The notes: generated from the sequence alone by a model not told the origin. 64,000 nt of DNA from Cytophagales bacterium (GCA_965227315.1 OZ245737.1:859517-923516), one strand, 5' to 3'. Numbered from the stretch's first letter, positions 28,701 to 50,407 are shown. Numbers and translations are program-made.

Positions 28701-29363
28701 TGCTATACCGAACCAGGAGTATGTAATTATACCACTGGCGGTGGCAGATAAGGTAAATGTATCACCATCGCAAATCGAAACCGTTCCGAAAGTATCCAGG
28801 GTTACAATTGGCAATGCCCTAACTGTGATCGCCAATGAATCAGATATTCCCAAACATCCAAGCGGAGTTTCATAGGTCGCAAAATACCTTCCGGAGTCCT
28901 GTGCAAAGATCTGGAATTGACCATTGGTCAGTAAGGTGTCATAAGGCGTCACCACACCGAGGGAATCTCTGAACCAACGGATACTTGCGGTATCGTAGTT
29001 GGAGAAATTATTCAATTGGATCAACGGCGGAGTTGGGCTTCCGAAGCAAATATCCGTTGAGCCGGATATCACGGATATACCTTCCTGTGCGACGATCTGA
29101 ACTTCAACATTCACAGTATCGGACAGTGTGAAGCAACCGTTAAGTCCAACAACAACGCAATGGAAATCTCCGTCGATCACAAATCCACCATTGCCGAATA
29201 CGATCTTACTCGAATCAATACCACGGAATACGGTATCAGGCTGTACACCAGCTGTATTGATCCAATAATAGGTTTGCCCTGCCACTTGTGGTACCTCCAA
29301 ACTATCACGTTCAATATCGCAAATGGCAATGTCCGTATTATCTACCAGGGTAGCATCCGGCAC
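25716..29363 (-). CDS. C-terminal segment of the giant adhesin: Ig-like Cys-framed modules, a PKD-like domain and a T9SS type B (gliding-motility-associated) C-terminal sorting domain. It has no signal peptide of its own.
   Basis: The C-terminus VYLPNAFSPNSSNAENRTFKV...LTIYNRWGTKVY...WDGT...PQGVYTYYIKG...GTVNLIR matches the type B CTD. A PKD-like YFWDFGDATG..PVHVY lies upstream of it. The called start is a GTG and the frame stays open upstream into the 7010-aa ORF. Confidence 0.85.
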   Translation of the reverse strand: MPDATLVDNTDIAICDIERDSLEVPQVAGQTYYWINTAGVQPDTVFRGIDSSKIVFGNGGFVIDGDFHCVVVGLNGCFTLSDTVNVEVQIVAQEGISVISGSTDICFGSPTPPLIQLNNFSNYDTASIRWFRDSLGVVTPYDTLLTNGQFQIFAQDSGRYFATYETPLGCLGISDSLAITVRALPIVTLDTFGTVSICDGDTFTLSATASGIITYSWFGIAQGAIPNPSPPFDEIDIFVEDGYYVSINDGSCDAVSDTVYLELNPLPWVGVDTIAGTARFCAYPGNSVTLAADSVFPTSIYTWVYNGVDTVFGPTLGSSNMVTDSAGDYSLMIINSNGCTDTSTQVTVIVDTLQQYNITGLDTVCAPEAEVYTADVPGSWSLSNANGSIQPPATGTATVTIDWISPVASVLTFSPDPSGVVLCPVDTDTTIRIFNKPGVTITGPVEICQDSTGIFEASLGVGDSYDWNLTAGSANQPHNFSGVGFLGFRDTIQFSNFGQDTLVVSRIDPNSANCESTDTIVIKTFRNVFAEFSGSTDTCEGSVVVYNVDSLSPWSTVNYNSYVSPNGTIISSGQGTVTVQWGTGPTGWVAFSVTNGPCYDSVYKDVTLTPAPVTGIASSIPGDTICELEFDTISFWSTNPDPTHTYFWDVQQGVTVVSQLGGVTNDTLVLVIQQNGSFTVELQQTNAAGCRTDSLLAIHISEDPGNIVIDDWPVAACADGSTRSYTLSNVKPNTLITPFINDQQPNGPNNITWTGSQLLVNWGLAKQNSYVVLEATLETCTRFDTFFIQVDTLAEVIMLPTNPQSFCANEPVILIATPQDTSYTYQWFRDGDSIQGATDSVYVVDSTGDYSVRVTTLGGCSELSNSAFMTVFGIPNATILGDSIICPGDSTVLSSADNNVISYLWRNLFTQDSFPSSTVTVDEPGLWQLILINGDDCKDTSEVFEVYELQNPGVVILVDTNTYCNNDTVLLTGLFTGDSISILWTTDGLGNLINPDQDTAFYVPSDLDQGAVNFNVEVSNPCLVVEDDTVISFLDAPSARYVTSVPVGEIDQPVQFVLEDKTAFEYFWDFGDATGVGVDPVHVYASAGEFMTGVLAENANGCTDTFFLPFTVTNNEQVYLPNAFSPNSSNAENRTFKVYGYNVQASEFELTIYNRWGTKVYSTTDIGEAKFVGWDGTSTSLGGGNVPQGVYTYYIKGKFRSGESFEKAGTVNLIR

Positions 29364-29374: not shown

Positions 29375-29435
29375 TTACACTGATGGTTGCCGTATCCGTA
29401 AAACACCCATTGTTGCAAGTCCTACCACCTGGTAA
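29375..29435 (-). other. Frameshift junction joining the 7010-aa and 1215-aa ORFs (apparent 1-nt deletion, most plausibly at about 29408-29413)
   Basis: The upstream frame reads ..DYQVVGLATMGVLRIRQPSV*. The downstream frame, read 5' of its called start, gives ..NNGCFTDTATISVTVLPVPDATLV. That supplies the conserved second Cys and the V.V..P end of the module begun in the upstream ORF. The span 25716-50407 is 24692 nt, which is 2 mod 3. Confidence 0.75.
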
Positions 29436-35400: not shown

Positions 35401-38400
35401 AACCCATGGTGTCAATACATGAAGCGTTGGCAGCAAGAATTTGATAAACCCCGGTCCATCCTGCCTCATATGTGGAATCGTTGGCCCCCGCAATGGTATC
35501 ATTTCCATACATCCAGGTCAGGTTGTAATCGGCCGCGACCGAAGGCCCGACAAGGCTTAGCGTGATCGTCTCACCAAAACAGGTATCCGCAACTGCCGCA
35601 ACCGTGCTATCGGCAAATGGAAGCGGTGTTTCTACGATGATGGCCCTGGAAGAATCCGCACAGCCCCTTCCATTATCCACCTTCAGATAGTAATTGCCTG
35701 CCGTATCTACACGCAATGAATCGGCCGTTCCCACAATCTGACCTGAAATGGCCTCTATCCATGTGAAACTGACTCCACCCGAACTGTCTTGGGCAAAGAA
35801 AGTAACAGCCGTATCGCCATAGCAGAAGGTCGTATCCCCTACGATCAGCACACTTGGATCTGTTTCCAGGATGGTGATGGAATCATAGGCGAATGTCTGC
35901 GTGGCACAACTGGCGCTGGAATTCAATTCCAGGCTTACGACATCAAATCCTTTTAGCTCATTGGTCGCATATGTTGTTCCGATATGTCTTAGGGTATCAT
36001 TGACATACCAGCGATATCCCGGATTGGCTCCTTGTCCTCTTACACTATCAACTTCAAATGTGATCAGCTCATCAGGGCAGATCGGATTCATGGGATCCAT
36101 GCTCAGGAACACCTCAGGAGTAACACTACCCGGTAGTGTATTCACTCCATAGGTGAAGAAGACGGAATCCGTTGGGGCCAGACAACCACTTGAGGCATTG
36201 GTAACGGTTACCCTGTAAGTTTCCCCGGCATTTACACCGGTCTGAATACTTGTGAGGTCTGCACCTGCTGCAACCAACTGAACAGAAGGTGAAATTCTTC
36301 TCCAGACATATTGAGAACCAAATCCAAGTCCTACGACATTGGCGCTAAGGTTCGTCAGATCACCATTACATGTCGGATCAGGATCCTGGGTAATGGTCAC
36401 CGAAGGAGTGTTGTTGATCGTAATGGTATCAAAATCTATAGCTGTGGCGGTTCCTGCACCACAGGCAAGACCCTTATTCAGTTCCACGGAAATGAAGAAC
36501 GGACCAGCTCCGGTAAAGGAACGAATGATGGTATCACCGTTGCCGAAGAATGTTCCATTTTCCCTCCAGGCATAGCTTGGGTTATCTCCTTCTCCGGTAG
36601 AAAGCGCTACAAGTCTTACCAGGGACCCGCTACAGATCTCTGTTCCCGGAGTCACCTCGATATCAACCGTTGGGATAATTGGGTCTTGAAGGTCAATTAC
36701 AAGTGTATCCCTATCCGTTGGGACAGCTCCGCATCCGTTTGAGACCAGTTCTACAACCACTTCGTCGCCATCAGCAAGCATGTTCGAGTTGTAGGTTCCA
36801 GATGAATTGGTTGCCACAAGCCCACCGTTGACAAACCAGTTGTAAACCGGGCTGGTGCCCTCACCGGATACCGTGGTTGAGAAAGTGACATTGTCACCCG
36901 AACAAACAGGGTTTGCAGGAGACTGGGCAAGGCTTACGCTTGGTGTCACAACAGGATCTACCGTAGTCGACTGGAATGCAAGGAAGCTCTGTCCGGTGTT
37001 GCACGAGTTCGGGTCAGCAGTCAGGTTCAGGGTGATCAGGTTGGTCCCCGGACCGATCTCAAATGAGTTCGATGGTGCGCCCGCCACGGTTGTCAATGTG
37101 ATCTGATCAAGATTTGAGATCGGTGGTCCGGCGGGTGGAATGACATTCCATTGATAACTTGGATTTGCACCCCCGCCAATGACATTGGCAGTATAGGTTA
37201 CAGTCTGTCCGATACATAGATCTCCTGAAGGGCTTTGGTCTATAGATACCTGCAGTGGAACCGTAAGGCTGCCCTGAATAAAGATCGTATCAGCTGCGGT
37301 TGGCATGGAGGCGCAGCCTGGAGGATTGCTTGAAGTCATGATGACCGCCACTTCATCTCCATCCTGAATGTTGACGAAGGTTACATTGTCTAAGCCTGTT
37401 CCCTGAGCCTGAAGCCCTCCGTTGAGAAACCATTGATAAGAAGGAGAAGTACCGCCACCGGAAGGATTAGCAGTGAAATCCACATCATCACCAATACAAA
37501 CGGGGTTGTCAGGGCTTTGTGAGATCGAAACCTCAGGAGTAATTGGGTCCTGGATCTGGATGATATAGGAATCATTAACGATTGCTCCTGAAGATTTACA
37601 AGAAGCGTTGCTATTGAGCTGGACTGAGATTGAGTCGCCGCTTACAGTATTTCCAGGGTAGAGGTAGCTGGTTCCAAAGGCAACCGGGTTTGTACCCAGG
37701 TACCAGGTCGGAACCGCTGTTCCCTGTCCAACCATGATAGCTTCAAATTCCACATCCTCATTTGGACAAACAGGTCCGTTAGGATTGGCGCTGATAGAGA
37801 TCGAGGGCGTTACTGAATTGTCAACAACAACCAAAACCGAATCAAGCACTACATCCGGGGAATAGCAACTTGGCGCTTTGGACATCCTCACTTTCACATA
37901 ATAGCTTCCGGCCGGGGTGAAAGTGGTATCGAATATTGTACTGTCCGTACCAGCGGGATTATTATCAATAAACCACTCATAAACCGGATTTGCGCCCCCA
38001 CCCACATTGGAAGCCTCAAACTGAACCGGGTCATTGATACAAACCGGTGAAGCCGGACTTTGAACAATACTCACCGTAGTCGTACCGCCTGTTGTGGTAT
38101 TGATCGTAACCTGATCCGTAACCGAACCGACAGTTGCACAGGCAGCTGTGGTAGTGAGTGTGAAGCTAAATTCGTCACCATCATTCCAATTTGTGGACAG
38201 GACAGTCAAGGAGTCATCGGTACCGATTACAGCGCCTCCGTTTCTTCTCCAGGCATAGGTATCCGAAGGTCCAGCTCCGGTGATGTTGGCAACAAGGAGC
38301 AGATCGTCGGTGGCACAAACAGGATTTGCCGGGAACTGATCAATGCTCACCACAGGAGTAATTGAGTCTACCACGATCATCAGGGTGGTATCTTCCACGA

Positions 38401-41400
38401 TCCCCGCAGGTGCAGGAATACATCCCATTCCGGTCACATCCAGTGTAACTCTAACAAGATCTCCATCCGTTGGTGAATATGAATAAGAGTTGCCGGTTGA
38501 AACGATCGGACCACCATTCACCGTCCATGCCCATACAGGAGCGTTTCCTGTATCAGTAGCAACTACCGTGAAGTCTACCAATTCCCCATCACAAACCGAG
38601 CCCGGAGGATCCTGAACCAGGGAAACGGTTGGCGGCACATTGGGATTCACCAGGACTTCAGCCGAATCTGTGATGTTGGCATCAGGTGCGGCCACTCCGC
38701 AGCCATTGGCATCGGATATGGAATCGATATAGTAAGTGGTATTGACAGTGGGGTTTACAACGATATTGTCTCCCGAAGTATAGGGGAATATGTCTGTTGT
38801 ATTTGTTCCGTCGGTGTACCTGACAAAATATGGTGCGGTTCCGGTAGTAAAATTCACCTGAATGTTTGCAGAAGAACCATCACAAATGGATTGGTTCAAA
38901 GGCGTCATATTAGCAGCAGCGGTTGGATTCACAAGGGAAGTGGCATTGCTGGTGATAACTGTAGCCGCACAGAATGGTGGCGTACTGGTCGTAGCTGAGA
39001 CAAGCGTATAAGTGGTCAATGCCGGATTTGTTGGCACATGCCAGATCGTATCCCCTGAAGTATAGGGAGAAGGAACGACAGGATTAGCGCCTATATCCGC
39101 AACAATGGTGATCAGATATGGCCCTGCTCCTCCTACGAAATTCACAACCAATGGAATAGAGTCACCTTCGCAGATCACCGCACCACCGGTCAAGTTGGCC
39201 GAATCTACAGGGTCAAAGAACTCAACATCCATTTCATCAAATGAGTCAGCACAGGTTCCGTTGGAAATCGTCCACCTCAAAGTATGCGTTCCAAGGAATC
39301 CGTTGGAATAGGCTGAGGAATTGAATTGAGAGCTATCACTGAAGGTCACCTGTCCAGGGCCCGATTGCCATGTCCAAACTCCATTTCCTACACCTGGGTC
39401 CGGGTTGTTGGCCGCAAGTATCGCCGAATCTCCGCAGAGTCCCAATTGGTCTCCTCCCGCATTCGCAGTTGTTGGGTTCGCAAAGAACCAAACCAGGATC
39501 TGATCCCTGAGGGTATCACAGGATCCGTTAAAGGATTTCCATTCCAACAATACCTCCACTGTATCCTCCGTACCGGTGAAAACCACTGAGGCCGTGGCGT
39601 TCGGCAAAGTAGGATCGTTAAACGACACTCTCGGGATAGCACTGATATCCTTCCACCTACCCTGCCCTGAGGTAATGTTATTTGCAGAAAGAACAATTGA
39701 ATTAGAACATATTTCAGCACTGTCGGGGCCGGCATCGGGTATCGTCGGATCGGCAAAGAAGTCCACCGTGATCGAACTTGCACTTGGGGTACATGAACCG
39801 GAACTGATCGTCCAGGTCAACTGATACTGCCCGTAAACTCCATTATGCCTTGCAATGGTGTTGAACAGTGTATCATCATCAAAGGTGATCACTCCACCGG
39901 CGGGAGCAAGAGTTGTTGTCCATTGTCCCGTTCCTACTATAGGATTATTAGCTGCCAGTTCTACGGTATCGGCACAAATACTATCTGTAACCGCACCGGC
40001 AACCGAGGTAGTTGGGTCCTCATCAAAAGTGATCAGAACGGTATCACCCACCGATGGGCATGGATCATTGGCAACCGTCCATGATAATTTGTAGGTGCCA
40101 TACAATCCCGGACCCGTTGTATGAACTACGGAAGTCGGACTGTTTCCATTAACAAAATTGATATTTCCTGATACGGGATGCTCAGTCCAAAAAGAGGAGA
40201 ATGGACCAGGATTTGATGCCGCCAGGGTTGTGAACGTGTCGCAAACCGATTGGTCCGGGCCTGCAAAAACCGGAATTAAAACCCGATCTCTGAATCCAAC
40301 CGTAACCGAATCCTGATCCACGGGGCAATTACCGTTGCTGGTGGTCCACATCAAAATGTAATTTCCATCCGTAGATCCATAAGCTTCAGATTTTGGATCT
40401 GCAGGATTATCAAAGGTCACAACTGCAGGACCTGAAACAAACGACCACATTCCTGATCCAACAGTGACTATATCGGCGTTCAAACCCACGGTGTCACCGC
40501 AAACGGAGGTATCGTTTCCGGCAAATGCAGGAGTCGGATTATCAAAGAAGGTGATCTGAACCGTATCGGCTGAGTCGAGGCATACTCCGTTGCCAAGGCT
40601 CCAGCTCAATTCATATACTCCGAAACCACCTGCCGTAAAGTCTGTGTTGAATACCGTGCTGTCCACAAAGACGTGACCTGCCGGACCGCTCACTACCTGC
40701 CAGTAACCATACTCACCTGCTGCAGGCATGTTACCAGCCAATGTGGTGGTCAGCTGACAGACCGAATCAGGGGTACCTGCGTTCGGAACCGTAGGATCAT
40801 CGAAGAAGGTGATCTGAACCGTATCGGCTGAATCCAGGCATACTCCGTTGCCAAGGCTCCAGCTCAATTCATATACTCCGAAACCACCTGCCGTAAAGTC
40901 TGTGTTGAATACCGTGCTGTCCACAAAGACGTGACCTGCCGGACCGCTCACTACCTGCCAGTAACCATACTCACCTGCTGCAGGCATGTTACCAGCCAAT
41001 GTGGTGGTCAGCTGACAGACCGAATCAGGTGTGCCTGCATTCGGAACCGTAGGATCATCGAAGAAGGTGATCTGAACCGTATCGGCTGAATCCAGGCATA
41101 CTCCGTTGCCAAGGCTCCAGCTCAATTCATATACTCCGAAACCACCTGCCGTAAAGTCTGTGTTGAATACCGTGCTGTCCACAAAGACGTGACCTGCCGG
41201 ACCGCTCACTACCTGCCAGTAACCATACTCGCCTGCTGCAGGCATGTTACCAGCCAATGTGGTGGTCAGCTGACAGACCGAATCAGGTGTGCCTGCATTC
41301 GGAACCGTAGGATCATCGAAGAAGGTGATCTGAACCGTATCGGCTGAATCCAGGCATACTCCGTTGCCAAGGCTCCAGCTCAATTCATATACTCCGAAAC

Positions 41401-44400
41401 CACCTGCCGTAAAGTCTGTGTTGAATACCGTGCTGTCCACAAAGACGTGACCTGCCGGACCGCTCACTACCTGCCAGTAACCATACTCACCTGCTGCAGG
41501 CATATTACCAGCCAATGTGGTGGTCAGCTGACAGACCGAATCAGGTGTGCCTGCATTCGGAACCGTAGGATCATCGAAGAAGGTGATCTGAACCGTGTCG
41601 GCTGAATCCAGGCATACTCCGTTGCCAAGGCTCCAGCTCAGTTCATATACTCCAAAACCACCTGCCGTAAAGTCTGTGTTGAATACCGTGCTGTCCACAA
41701 AGACGTGACCTGCCGGACCGCTCACTACCTGCCAGTAACCATACTCACCTGCTGCAGGCATGTTACCAGCCAATGTGGTGGTCAGCTGACAGACCGAATC
41801 AGGTGTGCCTGCATTCGGAACTGTAGCAATGTCAAAATAGGTAATCTCTACGGTATCCGCTCTATCAACGCAAGCACCGTTTGTAACCCTCCATTCAATT
41901 TCATAAACGCCGAAAACACTGGCCGTTGCTGTTGTATTGGGGAGAGAACTATCTCCAAATGTGATTATACCCGGGCCTGATATCTGTGACCACTGGGTTG
42001 TTCCCGCACTTGGGGTATTTCCCATTAAGTTGTAAACCAATCCACAGATTGAATCATCAGCACCAGCGATAGCTGTATCGGGTTGCTCGAAGAACTCGAA
42101 GATGACCGAATCAACCGAAGGGGTGCAAGGTCCGTTGCTTACGGTCCAATAAAATTTGTATACCCCGTATGCATCTACATTGACCGTTGCTGCTGGGTTG
42201 AGGCTATCATTGCTGAAATTGGCATTTCCGGGGTTTCCGACAATGTCAGCCGTCCAGATACCAGAGCCAATAGTCGGTGGAACCGCTTGAAGCGCCGTCG
42301 AAAACCCGCAGGCAGAATCAGGATCGGGGCCAGCATCAGCCGTACTCGGGTTATCAAAGAATGACAATTCAACAGTGTCAATACTAGGAGTACAGTTGCC
42401 GTTAGTAATTGTCCAGGTGACCAAATAAACTCCAAAATCAGATGCGGTTATTGGGGTATTCGGGTCATTTGGGAAAAAGAAAGTAATGTCATTGGGTCCC
42501 GGCGGAGTGGATATTGTATCCCATACACCAATACCTACTGTAGGGGTATTGCCATCCATGGTATAGTTTGTCCCACATAGACTTGTATCCGACCCGGCAT
42601 TAGAAGTCGTCGGATCTTGATCAAAACGAACAAAGACGGTATCTGCAGAATCAAGGCAGACACCATTTCCTATACTCCAACTCAGCTCATACAATCCATA
42701 GTTTCCTCCTGTAAAGTCTGTGTTGAATACCGTGCTGTCTACAAAGGCGTGACCAGCCGGACCGCTCAATACCTGCCAGTAGCCATATTCACCCGCCCCA
42801 GCCGGATTTGCTCCCAGCGTTGCGGTGAGACCACAAACAGTGTCGTTCATTCCTGCATTGGGCACGGTCGCAAAATCAAAGAAGGTGATCTGAACCGTGT
42901 CGGCTGAATCCAGGCATACTCCGTTGCCAAGGCTCCAGCTCAATTCATATACTCCGAAGCCGCCAGCTGTAAAGTCTGTGTTGAATACCGTGCTGTCTAC
43001 AAAGACGTGACCTGCCGGACCGCTCACTACCTGCCAGTAACCATACTCGCCTGCTGCAGGCATATTACCAGCCAATGTCGTGGTCAGCTGACAGACCGAA
43101 TCAGGGGTACCTGCATTCGGAATCGTAGGATCATCAAAGAAGGTGATCTGAACCGTGTCGGCTGAGTCAAGGCATACTCCGTTGCCAAGGCTCCAGCTCA
43201 ATTCATATACTCCGAAGCCGCCAGCTGTAAAGTCTGTGTTGAATACCGTGCTGTCTACAAAGACGTGACCTGCCGGACCGCTCACTACCTGCCAGTAACC
43301 ATACTCGCCTGCTGCAGGCATATTACCAGCCAATGTCGTGGTCAACTGACAGACCGAATCAGGTGTGCCTGCATTCGGAATCGTAGGATCATCAAAGAAG
43401 GTGATCTGAACCGTGTCGGCTGAGTCGAGGCATACTCCGTTGCCAAGGCTCCAGCTCAATTCATATACTCCGAAGCCGCCAGCTGTAAAGTCTGTGTTGA
43501 ATACCGTGCTGTCTACAAAGACGTGACCTGCAGGACCGCTCACTACCTGCCAGTAACCATACTCAGCCGGTCCTGGCATATTACCAGCCAATGTCGTGGT
43601 CAGCTGACAGACCGAATCAGGGGTACCTGCGTTCGGAATCGTAGGATCATCAAAGAAGGTGATCTGAACCGTGTCGGCTGAGTCAAGGCATACTCCGTTG
43701 CCAAGGCTCCAGCTCAATTCATATACTCCGAAGCCGCCAGCTGTAAAGTCTGTGTTGAATACCGTGCTGTCTACAAAGACGTGACCTGCCGGACCGCTCA
43801 CTACCTGCCAGTAACCATACTCAGCCGGTCCTGGCATATTACCAGCCAATGTCGTGGTCAGCTGACAGACCGAATCAGGGGTACCTGCGTTCGGAATCGT
43901 AGGATCATCAAAGAAGGTGATCTGAACCGTGTCGGCTGAGTCAAGGCATACTCCGTTGCCAAGGCTCCAGCTCAATTCATATACTCCGAAGCCGCCAGCT
44001 GTAAAGTCTGTGTTGAATACCGTGCTGTCTACAAAGACGTGACCTGCCGGACCGCTCACTACCTGCCAGTAACCATACTCAGCCGGTCCTGGCATATTAC
44101 CAGCCAATGTCGTGGTCAGCTGACAGACCGAATCAGGGGTACCTGCGTTCGGAATCGTAGGATCATCAAAGAAGGTGATCTGAACCGTGTCGGCTGAGTC
44201 AAGGCATACTCCGTTGCCAAGGCTCCAGCTCAATTCATATACTCCGAAGCCGCCAGCTGTAAAGTCTGTGTTGAATACCGTGCTGTCTACAAAGACGTGA
44301 CCTGCCGGACCGCTCACTACCTGCCAGTAACCATACTCGCCTGCTGCAGGCATATTACCAGCCAATGTCGTGGTCAGCTGACAGACCGAATCAGGGGTAC

Positions 44401-47400
44401 CTGCGTTCGGAATCGTAGGATCATCAAAGAAGGTGATCTGAACCGTGTCGGCTGAGTCGAGGCATACTCCGTTGCCAAGGCTCCAGCTCAATTCATATAC
44501 TCCGAAACCACCTGCCGTAAAGTCTGTGTTGAATACCGTGCTGTCCACAAAGACGTGACCTGCCGGACCGCTCACTACCTGCCAGTAACCATACTCACCT
44601 GCTGCAGGCATGTTACCAGCCAATGTGGTGGTCAGCTGACAGACCGAATCAGGGGTACCTGCGTTCGGAACCGTAGGATCATCGAAGAAGGTGATCTGAA
44701 CCGTATCGGCTGAATCCAGGCATACTCCGTTGCCAAGGCTCCAGCTCAATTCATATACTCCGAAACCACCTGCCGTAAAGTCTGTGTTGAATACCGTGCT
44801 GTCCACAAAGACGTGACCTGCCGGACCGCTCACTACCTGCCAGTAACCATACTCACCTGCTGCAGGCATGTTACCAGCCAATGTGGTGGTCAGCTGACAG
44901 ACCGAATCAGGTGTGCCTGCATTCGGAACCGTAGGATCATCGAAGAAGGTGATCTGAACCGTATCGGCTGAATCCAGGCATACTCCGTTGCCAAGGCTCC
45001 AGCTCAATTCATATACTCCGAAACCACCTGCCGTAAAGTCTGTGTTGAATACCGTGCTGTCCACAAAGACGTGACCTGCCGGACCGCTCACTACCTGCCA
45101 GTAACCATACTCGCCTGCTGCAGGCATGTTACCAGCCAATGTCGTGGTCAGCTGACAGACCGAATCAGGTGTGCCTGCATTCGGAACTGTAGGATCACCG
45201 AAAAAGACCAACTGCATCACATCCTGTGATTCAGGACAAGTACCATTTTGTGAATTCCAAAACACTGAGAAAGTATCAGGGCTTGAAACAATACCCGCAA
45301 CGTCTACCCGCACATTCGGATCCGTCGTATCATTTCCAAAGAAAAATAATGTTGAAGGCCCTGTAGCCGTCCAGTACCCCAAGCCGGTACCTATGGGAGT
45401 TCCGGACAGAAAGGCCGTCGTGCCGCAAGAATCGATATCAGGACCCGCATCAGGCGGTGAAGGAGAATCATGGAAAACTATCTGCACGATATCACTGCTG
45501 GTATCACAATCACCGATAATTGTCCACTCCAATTCAAAAGTGTCGGAGCTCTGAGTGAATCCACCAACGAGATCAACAATTGTGGTATCACTCAACGGAT
45601 CGACAATGTTAATTGTAAGAGGGCCGCTGATCTGTGTCCAGGTTCCTGCTCCAAATGTTGGTGCGTTTGCGGTCATTCGGATCAGGGTTCCGCACGAATC
45701 GATGTCCGTTCCGGCATCGGCAGGAGTAACCGTTGGCAATGTATCTACATAAAAACTATCCACGGAGAAACAGCCTGGAGACCTTGTAACGGTAAGGAAA
45801 TAGATCTCAGGGCCTGTGTTTGTGATTAGGGCAGTTGCAGAATTGGAAATCTGAAGGCCTCCGGGCGATCCCACATTCCAGCTATAGCTAAAGGTAAATG
45901 TCGGGTCAATCGAAACAGAATCCGCATAAACCAGGGTATCGCTTCCCAGGCAATAAACGATGGTATCATTGGTTGGAGGATTCAAATAGGAAATGACCGG
46001 CTCAAAACAAACCAGTACCGGGTCGGCAAACTCAGAACTATTCCCTCCCGACTCCTGGGTCACAGTGAGGCTGTCCAATCCGGCAATAATTGCTCCGGGA
46101 TTGATCTGCTTGCTCCAAAACCCTCCTGCGTTGGCTACAATTGTGGTATCCAAAAATTGTCTGCCTTGCTCGGATCCGTCAGCAAACAGGGATACGATTG
46201 CCCCCAACGAGGCATCTTTACCATAGAGAATTCCTGTAATACCAAGGCTATCAATAGTCGGAGCTGCAATACCAGACTGCACATCCCCGATCAAAGAAAT
46301 TCCCTCAACCGCATTATCATAAATTGAATTGTTTCTCCAAGCGTTTTGAGCTATTCCACCGCTGTTCGCTTCTATGCCGGGGCCCAGGTTGTTGGCAATA
46401 ATATTGGAGGTATCGGTGTTAAAAGAACCGAAGGTATTGAGACTTGCCCCTGCCCCGTTCAACAAAATGCCCGCCGCACCATTGGCACGCGGAGTGAAAG
46501 CGTCAATGCCGACACCGATCCAGTTCCTAAAAAAGAAGTTGTTATTGGCATTGACAAAAATTCCATTGTTCGTGTTCGATGAGATGATATTTCTGCGATT
46601 AGGGAGCGTGTCTCCCACAACATGATTCAGGCCATTGAGCCTAATACCAATATCATTCGCTGCAGCGTTTCCAAGAGTATCAATTCCAATGAAATTTCCG
46701 TAGATACTGTCGTTTGTCCCAGTCAATGTTTCGATTCCTGCATTTCCACCTAGGAAATTGATGATCGCCAATCCTCTGACCGCAACTCCGCTGGCGTCAA
46801 GTACAATTCCCGAGAAGCTTCCACCCTGTCCATCAAGCTGTATATCCGGAATCCCATCGTTGTCATATCCCGGTTGCGACCAACCATCGATGAGCGTGTT
46901 GGCGCCTGTTACGTTGGGCAGGGCAGAATCGAGAACAATTTCATGAGGTCCCCCACCGGGAATTGAAAATGAAATGATCGAACCTGGAGTCAAATTTGCC
47001 TCTCTAATCGCATTTCTGAAGGTACCACAGGTATTGTCATCAACCGTTTTACTCACCGCGAGACCGCCGTCAACTGTGATCTCTATAAATGCCGAATCCC
47101 AGCAGGTGGTTGCTGTTTCCTGAAAGATCGCCCAAACCGTATCCACAAATCCTACAATTTCCACAGAAGGGTCATAATCTGCGGTGTTGGTGGAAATATT
47201 AATAAGAGAAGAACTACCAACAATCTGTTTCCATGACCAGGTCCCGGGATTAGCAGGAAGGACAGTACTACTCATTCCGAACAGACCGCCGCTGATACAA
47301 ACAATTTGATTGCTTCCCTGATCGATGCCAACGGAAGGGTTGGCATTAATTGTAATCGTTGTTCCAACCAGAGCTGTATCGGTACATCCAAATGGAGTGG

Positions 47401-50400
47401 TTACCACAACATTATAAAGATGTGTTCCAATCGAATCGGCATAAAGGGTATCGGTTGTAGCACCGGCAATCGGGTTTCCATTGATCAGCCATTGGAAAGT
47501 CTCACCGTCCAATGAATCCTCGGAAAGAATTGCAAATCCATTTTCACAGTACGGCCCGGAAGATTGCTCGGTGATCGTCACAACCGGAAGTGGCTCTGCC
47601 TCGATCCATACTGAGTCGTATTCGAAACAGCTCGGATCATCAAAATCCGAAACCCTGACCGTATAGAATTGAGAACTTGCCGGGTTGACCGAGATAAAGG
47701 ATTTTGTTTGACCAACCAATACCGGGTCGGTGCGCCCACCATCATACCATTCGAAAAGCAGACCATTGCTTCCCAGGATAGTCCCAGCAACAGTGGCAGA
47801 ATCAACCCGAACTACAGTATCTCTGGTTGAGCAATTGTAGATACTGTCATGCGGGAGGGATACAACAGTATTTAGAAAATTGATATCGGGGCGTGAACAA
47901 ATTGCGAAGGGGGCAGAAAAATCTGATGATCTGTCTCCATCATCCTGTATGGCCGTGAGGTTTGTTAATCCGGGATTGATCCCTCCAAGGTTTAGGTCAA
48001 ACTCCCAGTTACCTCCGGCGGTTGCCACAGTATCTCCAAGATATTGCTCTCCTTCTTCGGCGGCATCGGCAAAAACCTGGATCCTGGCATTTGGTTGGGA
48101 AGTTCCTTCCAGGATAGTTCCCACCGGATTAAGATCATTAATCACCGGGGAATCAATGTCGTTTTGAACGCCCGGATCTACGAAATCTATTCCCAGTCCA
48201 CCATTTGAATAGATCTGGTTCTCAAAAAAGCGGTTGTCGTCTGCGCTACCCCTAACTCCTATGCCTTCATTGGCTGAATTGGCAATATCATTTGCAATGA
48301 TCGAATCGTTTTGTGCAGTACCCGAAAGATTGATACCGGCAGTCGATCCGGCAAGCGGGGTCCCGCCGGTGCTAATTCCAATACTATTGTTCTTTACGTC
48401 ATTGGCGCTTCCTGACTCGAGGCTGATCTCGTAGGTACCATGTCCTCCAATGTAGTTTCGCCCTCCAGCGGTTCCATCTCCGATCTGATTATTGGATGCT
48501 CCACCATCCACCCTGATACCATAGGCAGCATTGGCAACGGTGGCGTTTCCAAGATTATCCGTACCGATATAATTCCCTAATATTTGGTTGCCTTGTCCGG
48601 CTCCTCCGGATATTCGAATGTCCGAATCTCCATTTCCGGAGATCACATTTAGCCCTGAAGGGGTTCCGTCTCCAATCGAATTGTTTGCCGAGCCATCAAT
48701 AAAAACCCCGTTTACCCCATTGGGTATTGCTGCATTTCCGCTAGCGTTAAGCCCTATATAGTTTCCGATTACGAAATGAACACCAACACCCTCAATCTCA
48801 ATTCCATCATCGGAATTCCCAGAAATTATATTTCTTTCAGCAGGCGTTGTGCCGCCAATTCTGCAATTTGTTGCTAGCGAAGTGATGTTTACACCTTCTA
48901 TATTGGCAGAGGCCGCAACCGCAGTACCTGCAAGGTTGGTCCCGATCCTGTTGCCAATCGCAACCGCATTTGCTCCTTCAACCCAAATGGCCGAAACAAA
49001 GTTGAATAGGTGGAGATATTGGAAAGTGATATTATCTCCATCGGCTCTCATTTTCGATACAGCACCACCATCGATCGATACGGAAGGAATGTCATCTCCG
49101 TCAATATCACCGTCAATTACGGTTCCATTTCCATTTCCTGCCGAGACGATCAACTCATTGCCCAAAACCACTGTCTGACCGGTCATCACAGGATCAAAAC
49201 GTATGGTGTCCGCTCCCAAATTGCTATTGGCATATGCGGCCGCCACACTGAGGCATCCACAAGAATCCGGATCATCGGCCGTATTGATGACGATCCTTGG
49301 GTCATTGATCTGAATACTCAGTGAGTCCTGGGCTTCACAACCATCGTCATCGATCTTCCTGGCAAAGATCTTATCGGGACCTGTGGCAATATTGGTAAAG
49401 GTGTAGGTCACAGTATCCTGGTTGCCAACGGCAAGATTTCCATTCGCCAGGGTATGGCTCCAGATCAGGGAATCCGTAGGACTGGAAATAGGAAGCACAT
49501 AAAAATCCTGCACTTCATCCCAGCAATAAGGACCGGGATCGTCAACAGTAAGTGTCAAAGGGATCTGATTCTTAACAAAAAGATCTACCGTGCTGGTAAA
49601 GTGATTGGCCGGTATGGTATGTGTACATCCATTGGAATCGGTCACAGAAACCACAGCATAATCGGTGTATTGAATTCCAGCCGGTCGCGGAGGCATCATG
49701 AGGGTGTCAGTACCTTTCACATTATTGAAAACGAAACCGCCGGGGTTGAGAACAACCGTGAACCCTCCGGCAACGGTATCTGCTTCCCCTGTCACCCTGA
49801 TCCCGATGGGAATGGAATCGCCATCACAAATGGAATCCTTAACCGTATATAGGGTTGCCCCTATAGAGTCCTTATAAAAGAAATTGGATGGAGCAATATT
49901 TCTTGCCGAAACGCTTGCTACTCCTCCTGTAAATGTCAGTATGGTACCTGTTGGCGGGTTGGTTCTCCAGGAAAGCACACTTGAGTCGCATTTGTCAAGA
50001 ATGGGGATAACAATAGTACCAACCGTGGTATAGGTCAATGGAACCTGTACAGCAGCTCCCGGCGTAAGACTTTTAACCACATTGATCCCGACAACATTTA
50101 ATAAGGTGTTTCGGGATATGGTCATAGGATCATAACCTCCAACGTTATGCCACGCACCTCCGGTCGGGTCTAGTCTGGCATTATCAATATCAAGGTCAGG
50201 GGCGGTCGAGTCTACATTTGGTCTTAACCAAAAGTTTGAACTTCCAAGATCATCGGCAATACCGATTCGGCGTATTTCAATTAATACTCTGATGGAGTCT
50301 TTGGAAGCATCCAGGGATTGAGTGGCCCTAAGCTCCAGGTCAAGCTGAGAATATGCCCCAATGGAGCACAGCAGAAGTATGGATATCAGGTAGAGTTTCC

Positions 50401-50407
50401 TCAGCAT
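29375..50407 (-). CDS. N-terminal segment of the giant T9SS adhesin (7010 aa): signal peptide, N-terminal domain, 2x parallel beta-helix segments, about 25 Ig-like 87-aa modules, about 12 Ig-like modules of 95-100 aa, 2x LamG-like domains and 13 SprB-repeat-like modules. It has no CTD.
   Basis: An uninterrupted 21-kb ORF. Signal peptide MLRKLYLISILLLCSIGAYSQ. Beta-helix repeats (NxIGGN..DGIxI). LamG signatures GLIDEVRIWDY and GSIDEVRFWEN. Modules are framed by paired Cys residues. Confidence 0.9.
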   Translation of the reverse strand: MLRKLYLISILLLCSIGAYSQLDLELRATQSLDASKDSIRVLIEIRRIGIADDLGSSNFWLRPNVDSTAPDLDIDNARLDPTGGAWHNVGGYDPMTISRNTLLNVVGINVVKSLTPGAAVQVPLTYTTVGTIVIPILDKCDSSVLSWRTNPPTGTILTFTGGVASVSARNIAPSNFFYKDSIGATLYTVKDSICDGDSIPIGIRVTGEADTVAGGFTVVLNPGGFVFNNVKGTDTLMMPPRPAGIQYTDYAVVSVTDSNGCTHTIPANHFTSTVDLFVKNQIPLTLTVDDPGPYCWDEVQDFYVLPISSPTDSLIWSHTLANGNLAVGNQDTVTYTFTNIATGPDKIFARKIDDDGCEAQDSLSIQINDPRIVINTADDPDSCGCLSVAAAYANSNLGADTIRFDPVMTGQTVVLGNELIVSAGNGNGTVIDGDIDGDDIPSVSIDGGAVSKMRADGDNITFQYLHLFNFVSAIWVEGANAVAIGNRIGTNLAGTAVAASANIEGVNITSLATNCRIGGTTPAERNIISGNSDDGIEIEGVGVHFVIGNYIGLNASGNAAIPNGVNGVFIDGSANNSIGDGTPSGLNVISGNGDSDIRISGGAGQGNQILGNYIGTDNLGNATVANAAYGIRVDGGASNNQIGDGTAGGRNYIGGHGTYEISLESGSANDVKNNSIGISTGGTPLAGSTAGINLSGTAQNDSIIANDIANSANEGIGVRGSADDNRFFENQIYSNGGLGIDFVDPGVQNDIDSPVINDLNPVGTILEGTSQPNARIQVFADAAEEGEQYLGDTVATAGGNWEFDLNLGGINPGLTNLTAIQDDGDRSSDFSAPFAICSRPDINFLNTVVSLPHDSIYNCSTRDTVVRVDSATVAGTILGSNGLLFEWYDGGRTDPVLVGQTKSFISVNPASSQFYTVRVSDFDDPSCFEYDSVWIEAEPLPVVTITEQSSGPYCENGFAILSEDSLDGETFQWLINGNPIAGATTDTLYADSIGTHLYNVVVTTPFGCTDTALVGTTITINANPSVGIDQGSNQIVCISGGLFGMSSTVLPANPGTWSWKQIVGSSSLINISTNTADYDPSVEIVGFVDTVWAIFQETATTCWDSAFIEITVDGGLAVSKTVDDNTCGTFRNAIREANLTPGSIISFSIPGGGPHEIVLDSALPNVTGANTLIDGWSQPGYDNDGIPDIQLDGQGGSFSGIVLDASGVAVRGLAIINFLGGNAGIETLTGTNDSIYGNFIGIDTLGNAAANDIGIRLNGLNHVVGDTLPNRRNIISSNTNNGIFVNANNNFFFRNWIGVGIDAFTPRANGAAGILLNGAGASLNTFGSFNTDTSNIIANNLGPGIEANSGGIAQNAWRNNSIYDNAVEGISLIGDVQSGIAAPTIDSLGITGILYGKDASLGAIVSLFADGSEQGRQFLDTTIVANAGGFWSKQINPGAIIAGLDSLTVTQESGGNSSEFADPVLVCFEPVISYLNPPTNDTIVYCLGSDTLVYADSVSIDPTFTFSYSWNVGSPGGLQISNSATALITNTGPEIYFLTVTRSPGCFSVDSFYVDTLPTVTPADAGTDIDSCGTLIRMTANAPTFGAGTWTQISGPLTINIVDPLSDTTIVDLVGGFTQSSDTFELEWTIIGDCDTSSDIVQIVFHDSPSPPDAGPDIDSCGTTAFLSGTPIGTGLGYWTATGPSTLFFFGNDTTDPNVRVDVAGIVSSPDTFSVFWNSQNGTCPESQDVMQLVFFGDPTVPNAGTPDSVCQLTTTLAGNMPAAGEYGYWQVVSGPAGHVFVDSTVFNTDFTAGGFGVYELSWSLGNGVCLDSADTVQITFFDDPTVPNAGTPDSVCQLTTTLAGNMPAAGEYGYWQVVSGPAGHVFVDSTVFNTDFTAGGFGVYELSWSLGNGVCLDSADTVQITFFDDPTVPNAGTPDSVCQLTTTLAGNMPAAGEYGYWQVVSGPAGHVFVDSTVFNTDFTAGGFGVYELSWSLGNGVCLDSADTVQITFFDDPTIPNAGTPDSVCQLTTTLAGNMPAAGEYGYWQVVSGPAGHVFVDSTVFNTDFTAGGFGVYELSWSLGNGVCLDSADTVQITFFDDPTIPNAGTPDSVCQLTTTLAGNMPGPAEYGYWQVVSGPAGHVFVDSTVFNTDFTAGGFGVYELSWSLGNGVCLDSADTVQITFFDDPTIPNAGTPDSVCQLTTTLAGNMPGPAEYGYWQVVSGPAGHVFVDSTVFNTDFTAGGFGVYELSWSLGNGVCLDSADTVQITFFDDPTIPNAGTPDSVCQLTTTLAGNMPGPAEYGYWQVVSGPAGHVFVDSTVFNTDFTAGGFGVYELSWSLGNGVCLDSADTVQITFFDDPTIPNAGTPDSVCQLTTTLAGNMPAAGEYGYWQVVSGPAGHVFVDSTVFNTDFTAGGFGVYELSWSLGNGVCLDSADTVQITFFDDPTIPNAGTPDSVCQLTTTLAGNMPAAGEYGYWQVVSGPAGHVFVDSTVFNTDFTAGGFGVYELSWSLGNGVCLDSADTVQITFFDFATVPNAGMNDTVCGLTATLGANPAGAGEYGYWQVLSGPAGHAFVDSTVFNTDFTGGNYGLYELSWSIGNGVCLDSADTVFVRFDQDPTTSNAGSDTSLCGTNYTMDGNTPTVGIGVWDTISTPPGPNDITFFFPNDPNTPITASDFGVYLVTWTITNGNCTPSIDTVELSFFDNPSTADAGPDPDSACGFSTALQAVPPTIGSGIWTADIVGNPGNANFSNDSLNPAATVNVDAYGVYKFYWTVSNGPCTPSVDSVIFEFFEQPDTAIAGADDSICGLVYNLMGNTPSAGTTQWSQISGPGIITFGDSSLPNTTATASVFGVYEIEWRVTNGACVDRADTVEITYFDIATVPNAGTPDSVCQLTTTLAGNMPAAGEYGYWQVVSGPAGHVFVDSTVFNTDFTAGGFGVYELSWSLGNGVCLDSADTVQITFFDDPTVPNAGTPDSVCQLTTTLAGNMPAAGEYGYWQVVSGPAGHVFVDSTVFNTDFTAGGFGVYELSWSLGNGVCLDSADTVQITFFDDPTVPNAGTPDSVCQLTTTLAGNMPAAGEYGYWQVVSGPAGHVFVDSTVFNTDFTAGGFGVYELSWSLGNGVCLDSADTVQITFFDDPTVPNAGTPDSVCQLTTTLAGNMPAAGEYGYWQVVSGPAGHVFVDSTVFNTDFTAGGFGVYELSWSLGNGVCLDSADTVQITFFDDPTVPNAGTPDSVCQLTTTLAGNMPAAGEYGYWQVVSGPAGHVFVDSTVFNTDFTAGGFGVYELSWSLGNGVCLDSADTVQITFFDNPTPAFAGNDTSVCGDTVGLNADIVTVGSGMWSFVSGPAVVTFDNPADPKSEAYGSTDGNYILMWTTSNGNCPVDQDSVTVGFRDRVLIPVFAGPDQSVCDTFTTLAASNPGPFSSFWTEHPVSGNINFVNGNSPTSVVHTTGPGLYGTYKLSWTVANDPCPSVGDTVLITFDEDPTTSVAGAVTDSICADTVELAANNPIVGTGQWTTTLAPAGGVITFDDDTLFNTIARHNGVYGQYQLTWTISSGSCTPSASSITVDFFADPTIPDAGPDSAEICSNSIVLSANNITSGQGRWKDISAIPRVSFNDPTLPNATASVVFTGTEDTVEVLLEWKSFNGSCDTLRDQILVWFFANPTTANAGGDQLGLCGDSAILAANNPDPGVGNGVWTWQSGPGQVTFSDSSQFNSSAYSNGFLGTHTLRWTISNGTCADSFDEMDVEFFDPVDSANLTGGAVICEGDSIPLVVNFVGGAGPYLITIVADIGANPVVPSPYTSGDTIWHVPTNPALTTYTLVSATTSTPPFCAATVITSNATSLVNPTAAANMTPLNQSICDGSSANIQVNFTTGTAPYFVRYTDGTNTTDIFPYTSGDNIVVNPTVNTTYYIDSISDANGCGVAAPDANITDSAEVLVNPNVPPTVSLVQDPPGSVCDGELVDFTVVATDTGNAPVWAWTVNGGPIVSTGNSYSYSPTDGDLVRVTLDVTGMGCIPAPAGIVEDTTLMIVVDSITPVVSIDQFPANPVCATDDLLLVANITGAGPSDTYAWRRNGGAVIGTDDSLTVLSTNWNDGDEFSFTLTTTAACATVGSVTDQVTINTTTGGTTTVSIVQSPASPVCINDPVQFEASNVGGGANPVYEWFIDNNPAGTDSTIFDTTFTPAGSYYVKVRMSKAPSCYSPDVVLDSVLVVVDNSVTPSISISANPNGPVCPNEDVEFEAIMVGQGTAVPTWYLGTNPVAFGTSYLYPGNTVSGDSISVQLNSNASCKSSGAIVNDSYIIQIQDPITPEVSISQSPDNPVCIGDDVDFTANPSGGGTSPSYQWFLNGGLQAQGTGLDNVTFVNIQDGDEVAVIMTSSNPPGCASMPTAADTIFIQGSLTVPLQVSIDQSPSGDLCIGQTVTYTANVIGGGANPSYQWNVIPPAGPPISNLDQITLTTVAGAPSNSFEIGPGTNLITLNLTADPNSCNTGQSFLAFQSTTVDPVVTPSVSLAQSPANPVCSGDNVTFSTTVSGEGTSPVYNWFVNGGLVATNSSGTYNSNMLADGDEVVVELVSNGCGAVPTDRDTLVIDLQDPIIPTVDIEVTPGTEICSGSLVRLVALSTGEGDNPSYAWRENGTFFGNGDTIIRSFTGAGPFFISVELNKGLACGAGTATAIDFDTITINNTPSVTITQDPDPTCNGDLTNLSANVVGLGFGSQYVWRRISPSVQLVAAGADLTSIQTGVNAGETYRVTVTNASSGCLAPTDSVFFTYGVNTLPGSVTPEVFLSMDPMNPICPDELITFEVDSVRGQGANPGYRWYVNDTLRHIGTTYATNELKGFDVVSLELNSSASCATQTFAYDSITILETDPSVLIVGDTTFCYGDTAVTFFAQDSSGGVSFTWIEAISGQIVGTADSLRVDTAGNYYLKVDNGRGCADSSRAIIVETPLPFADSTVAAVADTCFGETITLSLVGPSVAADYNLTWMYGNDTIAGANDSTYEAGWTGVYQILAANASCIDTMGYAQVSIKPRIDSLLSIRLGDSILCKDDSVLLWVPGVQGHAAGSRAGYINTGINGLGGPGSKSVEAWVKTDTAMGIISWGTGGTNNWIVRINGANGALELSLNQAGNNRITGTTDLRDYQYHHIAVVYDSAINTNLDGVTLYVDGQKEMAGVFNNTAVSPGANTIYMGLRSQGPGANPYFMTGLIDEVRIWDYAMDSISIAHNRNTPLRGTEPNLFALWNFEDTTGSTPKEVVTGFAGGSFVNSFFGIDSGYYRAPLSNPGYVWRVDGTIQPLFTSNFFVYDTTGDVTVEVSNGNCAATSNVLPLREVIIDTTLNLLLGSGSPIAVGCFGDSVAFESNEIGPPAVTYQWFYGWDTIPGATSRDFGSTKTGIYTVAITKEECTEPSRSQVIRNAPQFDDSVRYETDTICEDGSVELVINSVNTNYWSTTGAGYGEANNLLDLVPDNGFSVELFFKIDNLASLANSVLMMKNQDANDYFRIAFDVNGDIMFETDVAANGAGTDQLILTGSNGNWNTSDWFHVAVSWDNIRGKAIHVVGVGSAYDSTENIVMPDFTPGPACDLVVGIDQNFGCATLPASEFPGSIDEVRFWENAHPRVFFANNSLVPLSGTEHGLLALWQMDSVGIFDDGDLIGDATSNSFNLELKNNGHVFAKGGFYQPDNAPSYQWYDDNGIIVGANTDTLVVTTEGNYYAEVLNGLNPATCAQFTDTVGIKVNFLDDSLIFDLVHDTVFCDDTDSALISIDNNQGPELRVDWYDTVGNTLIAADTHQVWIDTTGVYYAVLTKSYTTFPQFGGNVITCTDTTRLFHVIELENPMAFAGYDTLICFDQAHTLGGIVPDSVTASGGNPPYTYSWTLSTGLDDDGLLSDTNAANPIFSGDTVNTFNFIVEVTDDSLCFDIDTVMVQVNPEIIPFAGNDTIICFEDSAVLGGTPTAMGGSGNINLTPIWRPTTYFDDPADSTSFNPLVINSIDVGDDVTYVVEITDTVAGCQVYDTVRIVYNPKVVANAVAPDSIVCFMDSLQLDVQPRDSGGIGMHSYQWESNPVIAGIFSPSDTIADPYFKGIQSGLYQVYLTGTDSIGCIGRDTIQMRVNDTIMVDAGVDTVVCYGDTMILGGLPTASGGQGAFKYQWTYIPNFPGLINSGDSANPILIHNVTPLPGPVDVTFTLTVYDTASMQICEVVDQVVIRLNPQISISSFPGDSTVICFEDTIQPIPANVVGGSGNFSYLWSPNTYLNDDTLLQPDFYGDSSGVHLLTLSVTDDMDPFMASCIVDSVIQIRVRDTLMVNARSIDLLGNADSIACFQDSLLLIADVISDEGPFTYTWTPGTNLGGTLLNDTATMDGIIAGLYDYVIRVQDNGFLCDNFDTVHIAVSNRIIADANRLTAPGVFDTLYLCYGQDSSLGGNPTGNNLPGIPGGPLSYTWTPNIKLDDASLANPALTADSAMRLQYNVVVSDSFGCTDEDSLFVFVNDSISAGLINDTTLCFGDSIYLGDTLYDGSVTVTGGTEPYTFVWSSIPSTSVNFLDDPNARNPLFNPLGNANQIPHQFSVTIRDSLGICVEVRTVTITVNPPITFDPNAIVDSLCQFSTVQMGGFFTAGGGFDGTFDFQWAPSGLFDDDTLQFPNFTANYIGDTMVYLTVTDPIGCVAIDSQFVRSLQLPSFNIQNDSFDMCFGLDTVLRITDTVNYQSYGMLDILWSNGKTTDTIHYRASTDTIFYIALTNNQNTCSSMDSVQVFVNPLPLQNFSTDGSSISLNDTLAYCPASPSNPLVNVHSVPDAGNPIGIDTFFWSALDPPGFIAPGAELLNPTTYLPGAGNSPSNLALKIRDFNDCVNYDTVTILLTQYPNVRIRLADDTVCYGDSTSLYLVNLPAGPTFNHTVFRVQPGPFSIFIYNGGLDSIGILSSQSLPDTLTKPLEIVYEWTFVEGTCNSILYDTLIVLPKPKLTSGAVPNPVCLGDTTELSASINAPLVADSFYWSTGTVNTNGIEPVVPLVDTDYQVVGLATMGVLRIRQPSV
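40541..41830 (-). repeat. In-frame tandem array A: 5 near-identical copies of a 258-bp (86-aa) unit
   Basis: The anchor gtgatctgaacc recurs at 40551, 40809, 41067, 41325 and 41583, exactly 258 nt apart. Unit peptide: DPTVPNAGTPDSVCQLTTTLAGNMPAAGEYGYWQVVSGPAGHVFVDSTVFNTDFTAGGFGVYELSWSLGNGVCLDSADTVQITFFD. Confidence 0.95.
42875..45196 (-). repeat. In-frame tandem array B: 9 near-identical copies of the same 258-bp unit
   Basis: The anchor gtgatctgaacc recurs at 42885, 43143, 43401, 43659, 43917, 44175, 44433, 44691 and 44949, exactly 258 nt apart. In N-to-C order the copies are three V/AAG, one I/AAG, three I/GPA and two I/AAG. Confidence 0.95.

Follow-up and report, generated by a model that had tools for sequence, protein, structure and literature searches.

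The closest characterized system to the locus described here is GhpA of Aureispira sp. CCB-QB1, a 5898-amino-acid (aa) type IX secretion system (T9SS) substrate, seven copies of which form a 240-nm hollow stem of immunoglobulin (Ig)-like repeats with O-glycans; ghpB, for a PorP protein, and ghpC, for a PorE protein, lie downstream of ghpA (bioRxiv 10.1101/2024.01.29.577165). Type B cargo is held on the cell surface by a PorP-like partner, and PorP-PorE-like complexes have been proposed to tether nonmobile cargo to the cell wall (PMC9143113). Here, we analyzed a stretch of 64,000 nucleotides (nt) from an uncultured Cytophagales bacterium (GCA_965227315.1 OZ245737.1:859517-923516; referred to as the window), the minus strand of which carries a giant gene with a tandem array of 258-nt repeats. 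In our reading, to which we assign a probability of roughly 75%, a giant cell-surface fiber, 8230 aa long once one base has been restored, has a stalk that is made up in part of these repeats. We take the array to encode a homogenized Ig/PKD-like stalk in a giant T9SS surface fiber whose closest characterized relative is GhpA; the phenomenon is not new, but the example could be dissected well.

The window gene resembles ghpA in several respects. Its product, too, is giant, opens with a signal peptide, contains many Ig-like modules in a row, and carries a T9SS sorting domain at the C terminus; PorP and PorE homologues follow downstream, as in the ghpA-ghpB-ghpC layout; and its 86-aa module is of the same type as 11 modules of GhpA (PDB 9fly, 9flp, and others). 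It differs from ghpA in the length of its product (8230 versus 5898 aa), in having two PorE-like genes instead of one, and in the homogenization of 14 units, whereas the GhpA repeats are described as “slightly varying.” By sequence comparison, moreover, the head of the window protein lacks similarity to the GhpA hook (residues 26-1402) and contains beta-helix segments instead. The heptamer has been seen for GhpA, whereas the window protein is known from its sequence. We regard the window gene as a candidate for a GhpA-like fiber with a different head.

The Periscope Proteins (Rib, SasG, Sgo_0707, and CdrA; PMC8201768) offer a second comparison, since there, too, long and highly similar tandem repeats encode folded domains of a surface stalk (a predicted one for the window protein), and the mechanism proposed is a change in stalk length by intragenic recombination. 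The predicted layout is likewise similar, with an anchor at one end (CHU_C and a PorP-family gene in the window) and a beta-helix head at the other. Periscope Proteins are, however, defined by between-strain variation in repeat number, whereas the window array is known from one assembly; the window anchor is of the T9SS/PorP kind rather than a sortase or a described outer-membrane partner; and the DNA of the window units diverges by as much as 10%, although their protein sequences are nearly the same. The gliding-motility adhesin SprB of Flavobacterium johnsoniae, whose partner is SprF, shares with the window protein the features of a giant, repetitive type B T9SS cargo next to a PorP/SprF-family gene (PMC9143113). 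Membership in the SprB family was rejected, as PF13573 gave one subthreshold match (17.3 bits versus a cutoff of 28). Finally, “gliding motility-associated” CHU_C proteins with K319L-like PKD domains (PF22352) are comparable in that relatives of the window protein score strongly for this family and the fold is PKD-like, whereas the window unit itself lies below the gathering threshold of the family.

Anatomy of the array

The coding strand of the array is the minus strand, and units were cut in frame along the host open reading frame (ORF). Tandem Repeats Finder reported a single array at 40536-45197 (period, 258; 18.0 copies; 83% matches; score, 5315), and an independent repeat search placed 15 copies in register at 258-nt spacing, with one gap of 1044 nt. 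A hidden Markov model (HMM) built from the units found 25 consecutive modules of ~86 aa (aa 1559-3731), all in frame and without breaks. We set the borders of the module zone at aa 1557-3731, i.e., positions 39215-45739 of the window, and the modules fall into five blocks in the N-to-C order M1-M2, A1-A9, D1-D4, B1-B5, and E1-E5:

45200..45739, minus strand: diverged modules M1 and M2, the start of the module zone (aa 1557-1736; HMM)
42878..45199, minus strand: block A, nine near-identical 258-nt units A1-A9 (aa 1737-2510; in-frame dissection and repeat search)
41834..42877, minus strand: four diverged modules D1-D4 between the homogenized blocks (aa 2511-2858; in-frame dissection and HMM)
40544..41833, minus strand: block B, five near-identical units B1-B5 (aa 2859-3288; in-frame dissection and repeat search)
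39215..40543, minus strand: diverged modules E1-E5, the end of the module zone (aa 3289-3731; HMM, with orthologous modules in the contig L003 of a metagenome-assembled genome [MAG])

An earlier note on this DNA had described an array of nine in-frame 258-nt units at 42875-45196. Three tools agree that the repeats are there, and the interval of the nine units matches block A apart from a 3-nt shift of arbitrary phase. The description was nevertheless partial, as the five B units lie outside that interval, and the near-identical units, 14 in total, all sit inside the run of 25 modules. The order of variants given for block A, from N to C terminus, was borne out (V/AAG three times, I/AAG once, I/GPA three times, and I/AAG twice). 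Each unit measures exactly 258 nt (86 aa) and contains two cysteines, C15 and C74. Six residues (A8, G9, C15, W34, W67, and C74) are the same in each of the 13 distinct modules, and D2-D4 share 31-48% protein identity with the unit.

Fold of the modules, glycosylation motifs, and head

An AlphaFold2 model of unit A2, built from the 13 distinct window modules, predicts an all-beta Ig-like sandwich with a mean predicted local distance difference test (pLDDT) score of 95.7 and a predicted template modeling (TM) score (pTM) of 0.83, in line with the Cys-framed Ig-like module that the earlier note had read from the sequence. In Foldseek, the best structural match of the unit was the base of GhpA (9fly_A; TM score, 0.81; root mean square deviation, 1.6 Å; 26% identity), followed by PKD domains of AAVR and KIAA proteins (TM scores of 0.76-0.77). 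The module profile matched 11 consecutive GhpA modules at residues 4757-5716 with an E value of 1.3e-95. These modules adjoin the C-terminal sorting domain of GhpA, and the first of the 11 falls within the solved base fragment (residues 4151-5009). From the module zone onward, each part of the window protein had GhpA as its only sequence match in the PDB. On this model, the unit is an Ig/PKD-like beta-sandwich homologous to the GhpA modules, and it resembles a module of a stem, that of GhpA, which is rod-like.

Pfam models did not recognize the homogenized unit. Weak matches to PF22352 were found in only 2 of the 13 distinct window modules (best E value, 0.0015), and close family members are strong for K319L-like_PKD (PF22352) and CHU_C (P0014, E value of 2.8e-104). 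The unit thus appears to be a divergent relative of PF22352, below scored membership.

The tripeptide D-[ST]-[AILVMT] is an O-glycosylation motif of Bacteroidota. We counted 254 such sequons in the whole protein (25716-50407, minus strand), i.e., 3.1 per 100 aa versus 0.61 expected from composition. Within this fivefold enrichment, each homogenized unit contributes four sequons (DSV, DST, DSA, and DTV), which are kept in every copy. This suggests that the stalk is heavily glycosylated, like that of GhpA.

The head contains an internal duplication at aa ~380-1560 (45728-49270, minus strand; 34% identity, E value of 1e-27). For one copy of the pair, the predicted fold is a right-handed parallel beta-helix and then a beta-sandwich (pLDDT, 88.6), and its structural neighbors are capsule depolymerases, pectin esterases, tailspikes, and PL6 lyases.

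The giant gene and the proposed fiber

The array lies within the following group of genes and gene parts:

29375..50407, minus strand: main ORF of the giant gene, 7010 aa, in which the 25-module zone is joined by a signal peptide, two parallel beta-helix segments in the head, more Ig/PKD-like modules, and a pair of LamG-like domains
29405..29420, minus strand: site of the 1-nt deletion that splits the gene (near 29412; found by comparison with two relatives)
25716..29363, minus strand: 3' continuation in another frame, an ORF of 1215 aa with Ig_7, PKD, and a CHU_C type B T9SS sorting domain
24672..25715, minus strand: PorP/SprF-family outer-membrane protein, the presumed cognate anchor or shuttle (PF11751, E value of 2e-41; TIGR03519, 200.6 bits versus a cutoff of 90.55)
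22314..24653, minus strand: PorE-like protein of 779 aa with TPR, PD40, CarboxypepD_reg, and OmpA domains (T9SS_PorE, E value of 2.7e-61, 207.7 bits versus a cutoff of 600)
19404..22247, minus strand: second PorE-like paralogue of 947 aa with C-terminal LysM repeats (profile matches)

At the deletion site, the window reads GCAACAATGG, where both relatives have GCAACCAATGG or GCAACCAACGG. Restoring one C near 29412 gives an uninterrupted ORF of 8230 aa that runs from the signal peptide to the sorting domain. The deletion, the sole disruption in 24.7 kb, may be an indel of the assembly or else a mutation of very recent date. A putative N-terminal Sec signal peptide, MLRKLYLISILLLCSIGAYSQ, was read from the sequence; the sorting domain matches CHU_C (PF13585) with 54 bits versus a cutoff of 27; and the PorE-like proteins match T9SS_PorE with E values of 1e-61 to 1e-78. 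The earlier assignment of the modules to a surface-filament gene agrees with the signal peptide, the CHU_C sorting domain, and the PorP-family neighbor, which together point to a location on the cell surface.

In the fiber that we propose, the T9SS would export the protein and the PorP-like partner would keep it on the outer membrane, while the PorE-like proteins would tie it to peptidoglycan, making it static rather than mobile. The modules would be rigid spacers, probably with O-glycans, and each would add very roughly 4 nm, an estimate that follows from the roughly 60 Ig-like modules that GhpA packs into 240 nm, and they would project a head that includes a pair of parallel beta-helix domains. 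If unequal recombination added or removed units, the length of the fiber would change.

Several points weigh against this reading. The comparisons made gave no direct evidence of a change in copy number, and the rod shape, glycosylation, oligomeric state, and module length would all be carried over from GhpA. The homogenized unit (A2) has no match to any Pfam family at an E value of ≤1, and aa 1-1556 have no sequence similarity to the GhpA hook or to a solved structure (phmmer against all of the PDB, E value of ≤1). The NCBIfam type B model TIGR04131 scores 24.3 bits versus a cutoff of 35, and both PorE-like proteins fall far below the NCBIfam PorE cutoff. Lastly, the main ORF and the sorting domain are in different frames as assembled; should the deletion be genuine, T9SS secretion of the protein made in this genome would be impossible.

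History of the units

We compared the DNA of the 14 near-identical units over 258 columns and 91 pairs. The number of pairwise differences ranged from 0 to 27 of 258 nt with a median of 12, so that DNA identity was 89.5-100% and protein identity was 93-100%, and about 22 of the 31 variable columns were synonymous. The wording of the earlier note, that the copies are almost identical at the DNA level, was therefore too strong and holds only for some subsets. Among these are A5 and A6, which are the same in DNA, with A7 2 nt away from both; A2 and B4, which are exactly the same even though they lie 3882 nt apart; B2 and B3, each 1 nt from the A2/B4 sequence, so that B2-B4 are 1-2 nt apart from one another; and A3 and B5, which differ by 1 nt.

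The units fall into two lineages, the first comprising A1, A2, and B1-B4 and the second comprising A4-A9. They are separated by 12-16 synonymous sites and one conservative replacement (V/I), i.e., by a synonymous divergence (dS) of 0.23-0.30 and a nonsynonymous divergence (dN) of 0.005. The change from AAG to GPA, carried only by A5-A7, consists of six substitutions clustered within 10 nt. The remaining units, A3 and B5, share one mosaic pattern with a lineage 1 core and lineage 2 ends, and short patches of lineage 1 occur inside the lineage 2 units A8 and A9. In a four-gamete test, all four gametes were present at 61 of the 210 informative site pairs, which, together with the mosaics, argues for gene conversion or unequal exchange between units. 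Gene conversion, which the earlier note had raised, is thus evident in the four-gamete result and in the mosaic common to A3 and B5.

Exchange has also involved more than single units. The triplet A1-A3 differs from B3-B5 at only 4 positions in 774 nt, and the longest exact repeat, of 695 nt, joins blocks A and B (positions 40566 and 44448; lag, 3882 nt), indicating that a multiunit block moved recently between them. A three-unit block has been duplicated or converted between blocks A and B. Module D1, in turn, has 73% protein identity to the unit and saturated synonymous sites (proportion of synonymous differences [pS], 0.72-0.76), and it is an old escapee of the lineage of the homogenized unit. 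Taken together, the differences among units point to a layered history of two old lineages, recent copying within each, transfer of a three-unit block, and mosaic units with short conversion tracts.

The age of the split can be set against a related strain, given that the Logan assembly of SRR20820735 contains the same locus with 94.7% DNA identity over 21 kb. Between the window and this strain, the giant gene has a dS of 0.28-0.30, a dN of 0.008-0.011, and a ratio of dN to dS (omega) of ~0.03 over >3,000 codons. Since the dS between the unit lineages is about the same as that between the strains, very recent amplification is not the whole story. Very recent copying of single units, as suggested earlier, is seen in the identity of A5 and A6, in the 2 nt that set off A7, and in the 1-2 nt among B2-B4, but it does not account for lineages at a dS of 0.23-0.30. 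The omega of the units is 0.02-0.07, the same level as in the rest of the gene (~0.03), which indicates that their protein sequence is kept by ordinary purifying selection. As the amino acid conservation between lineages equals that of the rest of the gene, there is no call for unusual selection, and we rejected unusually strong selection on the units for the match between these two omega values.

The lineage split fits three readings, namely, an old divergence within the gene, import from a related strain, and, less likely, a chimeric consensus of two strains. According to the second of these, the lineage 2 units A4-A9 would have been imported by homologous recombination from a related strain with a differently marked homogenized unit. 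For dS as well as for dN, the distance between the lineages does match that of the gene between strains, and lineage 2 forms one contiguous tract, A4-A9. On the other hand, no donor sequence is available, and the mosaic units A3, A8, and A9, which lie at or inside this tract, fit intragenic conversion equally well. We hold import to be a tenable but somewhat doubtful explanation. A partial unit from another species (contig L003; see below) is equidistant in DNA from all window units (22-25 of 129 nt). This equidistance fits concerted evolution; being the same for both lineages, it does not discriminate for or against import. By comparison, the units of two family members from JGI metagenomes, L005 and L006, are DNA identical (median of 0 differences; mean pS, 0.001-0.01), which makes the window array unusually rich in synonymous markers.

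Relatives at the locus and the length of the array

Relatives of the giant gene were found in three assemblies. An upstream Logan contig of the SRR20820735 strain (SRR20820735_216129, referred to as L007) matches aa 1-1751 of the window protein with 95% identity. At positions 15520-15589 of this contig, the module after M2 starts with DAPTSPIAGTDIDTCGDSAVV, where window unit A1 has GDPTVPNAGTPDSVCQLTTTL, and the contig ends 21 aa into the module. This is a structural difference at the edge of the array, separate from a difference in copy number, and the strain may carry a different repeated unit at the A1 position. A downstream Logan contig of the same assembly, SRR20820735_27481, encodes a partial product of 5405 aa. 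If it were collinear with the window, this product would end inside D4, which would have required k-mer assembly across five near-identical units, so that the arrangement upstream of E1 in this strain would probably differ from that of the window. The MAG GCA_028282565.1 (Cytophagales bacterium PL24a_bin.2) contains three fragments of the giant gene, none of which enters the array.

The more distant MAG Cytophagales IP31a_bin.1 (L003; ~46% identity) has a contig that starts inside an A/B-type module and continues with a 70%-identical module and then with orthologues of E1-E5. At positions 1-130, the C-terminal half of this A/B-type module is identical to the window unit at 38 of 43 residues, as opposed to 13-25 of 43 for the flanking modules. 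The amplified module would thus be the most conserved one, a statement that rests on a single partial module. Between close relatives, the array region thus differs in structure. Scanning species-representative genomes gave two short MAG contigs only, a scan of JGI metagenomes with A9-D1-D4-B1 found no relative, and a word-index protein search with the unit, which returned proteins of up to ~1,100 aa only, gave no candidate.

These comparisons bear on whether the array is an actively variable length switch of the Periscope type, in which the number of units would shift within a population and tune the projection of the head. The units are folded Ig-like domains of a surface protein, longer than 50 aa and at least 80% identical, which are the values of the Periscope screen (PMC8201768). 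M2 is followed by a module that begins with DAPTSPIAGTDIDTCG instead of GDPTVPNAGTPDSVCQ in the closest relative, which is 95% identical over aa 1-1751, and the more distant MAG has a diverged module before E1 rather than five identical ones. However, no two genomes can be compared across the array. The coexistence of the lineages up to a dS of ~0.25-0.3 further indicates that turnover has not been fast enough to homogenize the window array, whereas two family members do have DNA-identical units (median of 0 differences), and the fibers of GhpA, the closest known relative, are uniform in length at 240 ± 4 nm. Overall, a length switch of this kind is possible but rather unlikely.

Integrity of the gene and of the assembly

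Because of the deletion near 29412, the final 1215 aa, to which the T9SS sorting domain belongs, are not in frame, and the giant gene could accordingly be read as a recently inactivated pseudogene whose array has no present function in this genome. We consider this unlikely. The deletion is a lone disruption in 24.7 kb, both relatives are intact at the site, and omega is ~0.03 relative to the closest relative over >3,000 codons; moreover, the missing base sits in a CC dinucleotide, where a sequencing indel error is possible.

The same deletion, as a potential indel error of long reads, also enters into the question of whether the copy number and arrangement in the window are products of assembly, with units collapsed or expanded or with two coexisting strains merged, in which case the lineages would be the strains. 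Exact repeats reach 695 and 548 nt, and a stretch of 806 nt, from the end of A4 to A7, is perfectly periodic, so that short reads cannot resolve the array, and the number of I/GPA units is left undetermined for shorter reads. The expectation in the earlier note that the array would be very hard to assemble from short reads is supported by these repeats of up to 695 nt and by the fact that no short-read assembly of a relative spans it: one contig ends just after M2, another has its start within an A/B-type module, and the rest stop at other places in the gene. All known relatives are metagenome derived, and the dS between the lineages (0.23-0.30) equals that between related strains (0.28-0.30). 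Nevertheless, the source sequence is contiguous over 3.57 Mb, which argues for long-read assembly, and all 25 modules are in frame without breaks. A simple two-strain chimera predicts neither the mosaic shared by A3 and B5, which lie 3.9 kb apart and differ by 1 nt, nor the lineage 1 patches in A8 and A9, and A/B-type modules occur upstream of an E1 orthologue in another species too. An assembly product is, in our view, quite improbable.

Also improbable is the fuller reading that the gene encodes a wall-tethered, GhpA-type multistranded fiber with a new head of two beta-helices in which copy number sets the length and the amplified unit has a specific role, such as lateral packing of protomers or display of a glycan array, even though a protein sequence fixed across a dS of ~0.3, the 38/43 identity in L003, and the four sequons in every copy would make the unit more than a spacer.

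Homogenized stalks in the wider family

Returning to the stalk of a GhpA-like surface fiber as the preferred reading, we searched 1.84 billion representative proteins with the module profile (E value of ≤0.001), and 13,087 of them matched. The top matches are giant proteins with up to 74 matched stretches. Among the best 150 of the 13,087, 40 have at least two modules that are at least 95% identical, 24 have at least five, and the extreme case has 34 of 40 modules. With near-identical modules in 40 of these 150 top members, homogenized blocks are a regular feature of the family.

Two such genes from JGI metagenomes were observed more closely, L005 (3001-22248) and L006 (3001-17397). Their homogenized arrays are much larger than that of the window, since modules with at least 95% identity account for 34 of 40 and for 33 of 48. 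Both show higher-order periodicity, with alternating lengths of 86 and 87 aa in one and a recurring irregular spacing of 81-83 aa in the other. Their sorting tails are of type A rather than type B, or none is called.

Giant T9SS fibers are abundant in environmental Bacteroidota, and GhpA is the only one solved or functionally studied. The locus described here is a fully resolved example that shares the module type of GhpA and the layout of its operon but has another head. The synonymous markers of its units let the history of the array be read, which DNA-identical arrays do not. With exact repeats of up to 695 nt, and with the array left unspanned in every short-read assembly of a relative, such genes are likely truncated in short-read MAGs, and because the homogenized unit has no Pfam match, domain-based annotation misses that part of the stalk. 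The principle of homogenized Ig-like stalks is itself well established, so that little is gained conceptually.

Other features of the window

Between the giant gene and two large ORFs lies a gene (50503-51768) whose 421-aa product has a T9SS tail of type A. The two ORFs, at 51775-53724 (minus strand, 649 aa) and 54711-57524 (plus strand, 937 aa), have no Pfam or NCBIfam match, and genes of similar size (603 or 649 aa and 934 aa) are called at their positions in L007 and L008. Amid housekeeping genes, a 435-aa leucine-rich-repeat protein (LRR_8, E value of 7e-33) is encoded at 5160-6467 on the minus strand. Finally, we noted the classic programmed +1 frameshift site of prfB, the gene for release factor 2, at 60005-60030 on the plus strand (AGGGGG TAT CTT TGA C), an ordinary and known feature, which precedes an ORF at 60114-61049 with PCRF and RF-1 domains whose N terminus is missing in frame.

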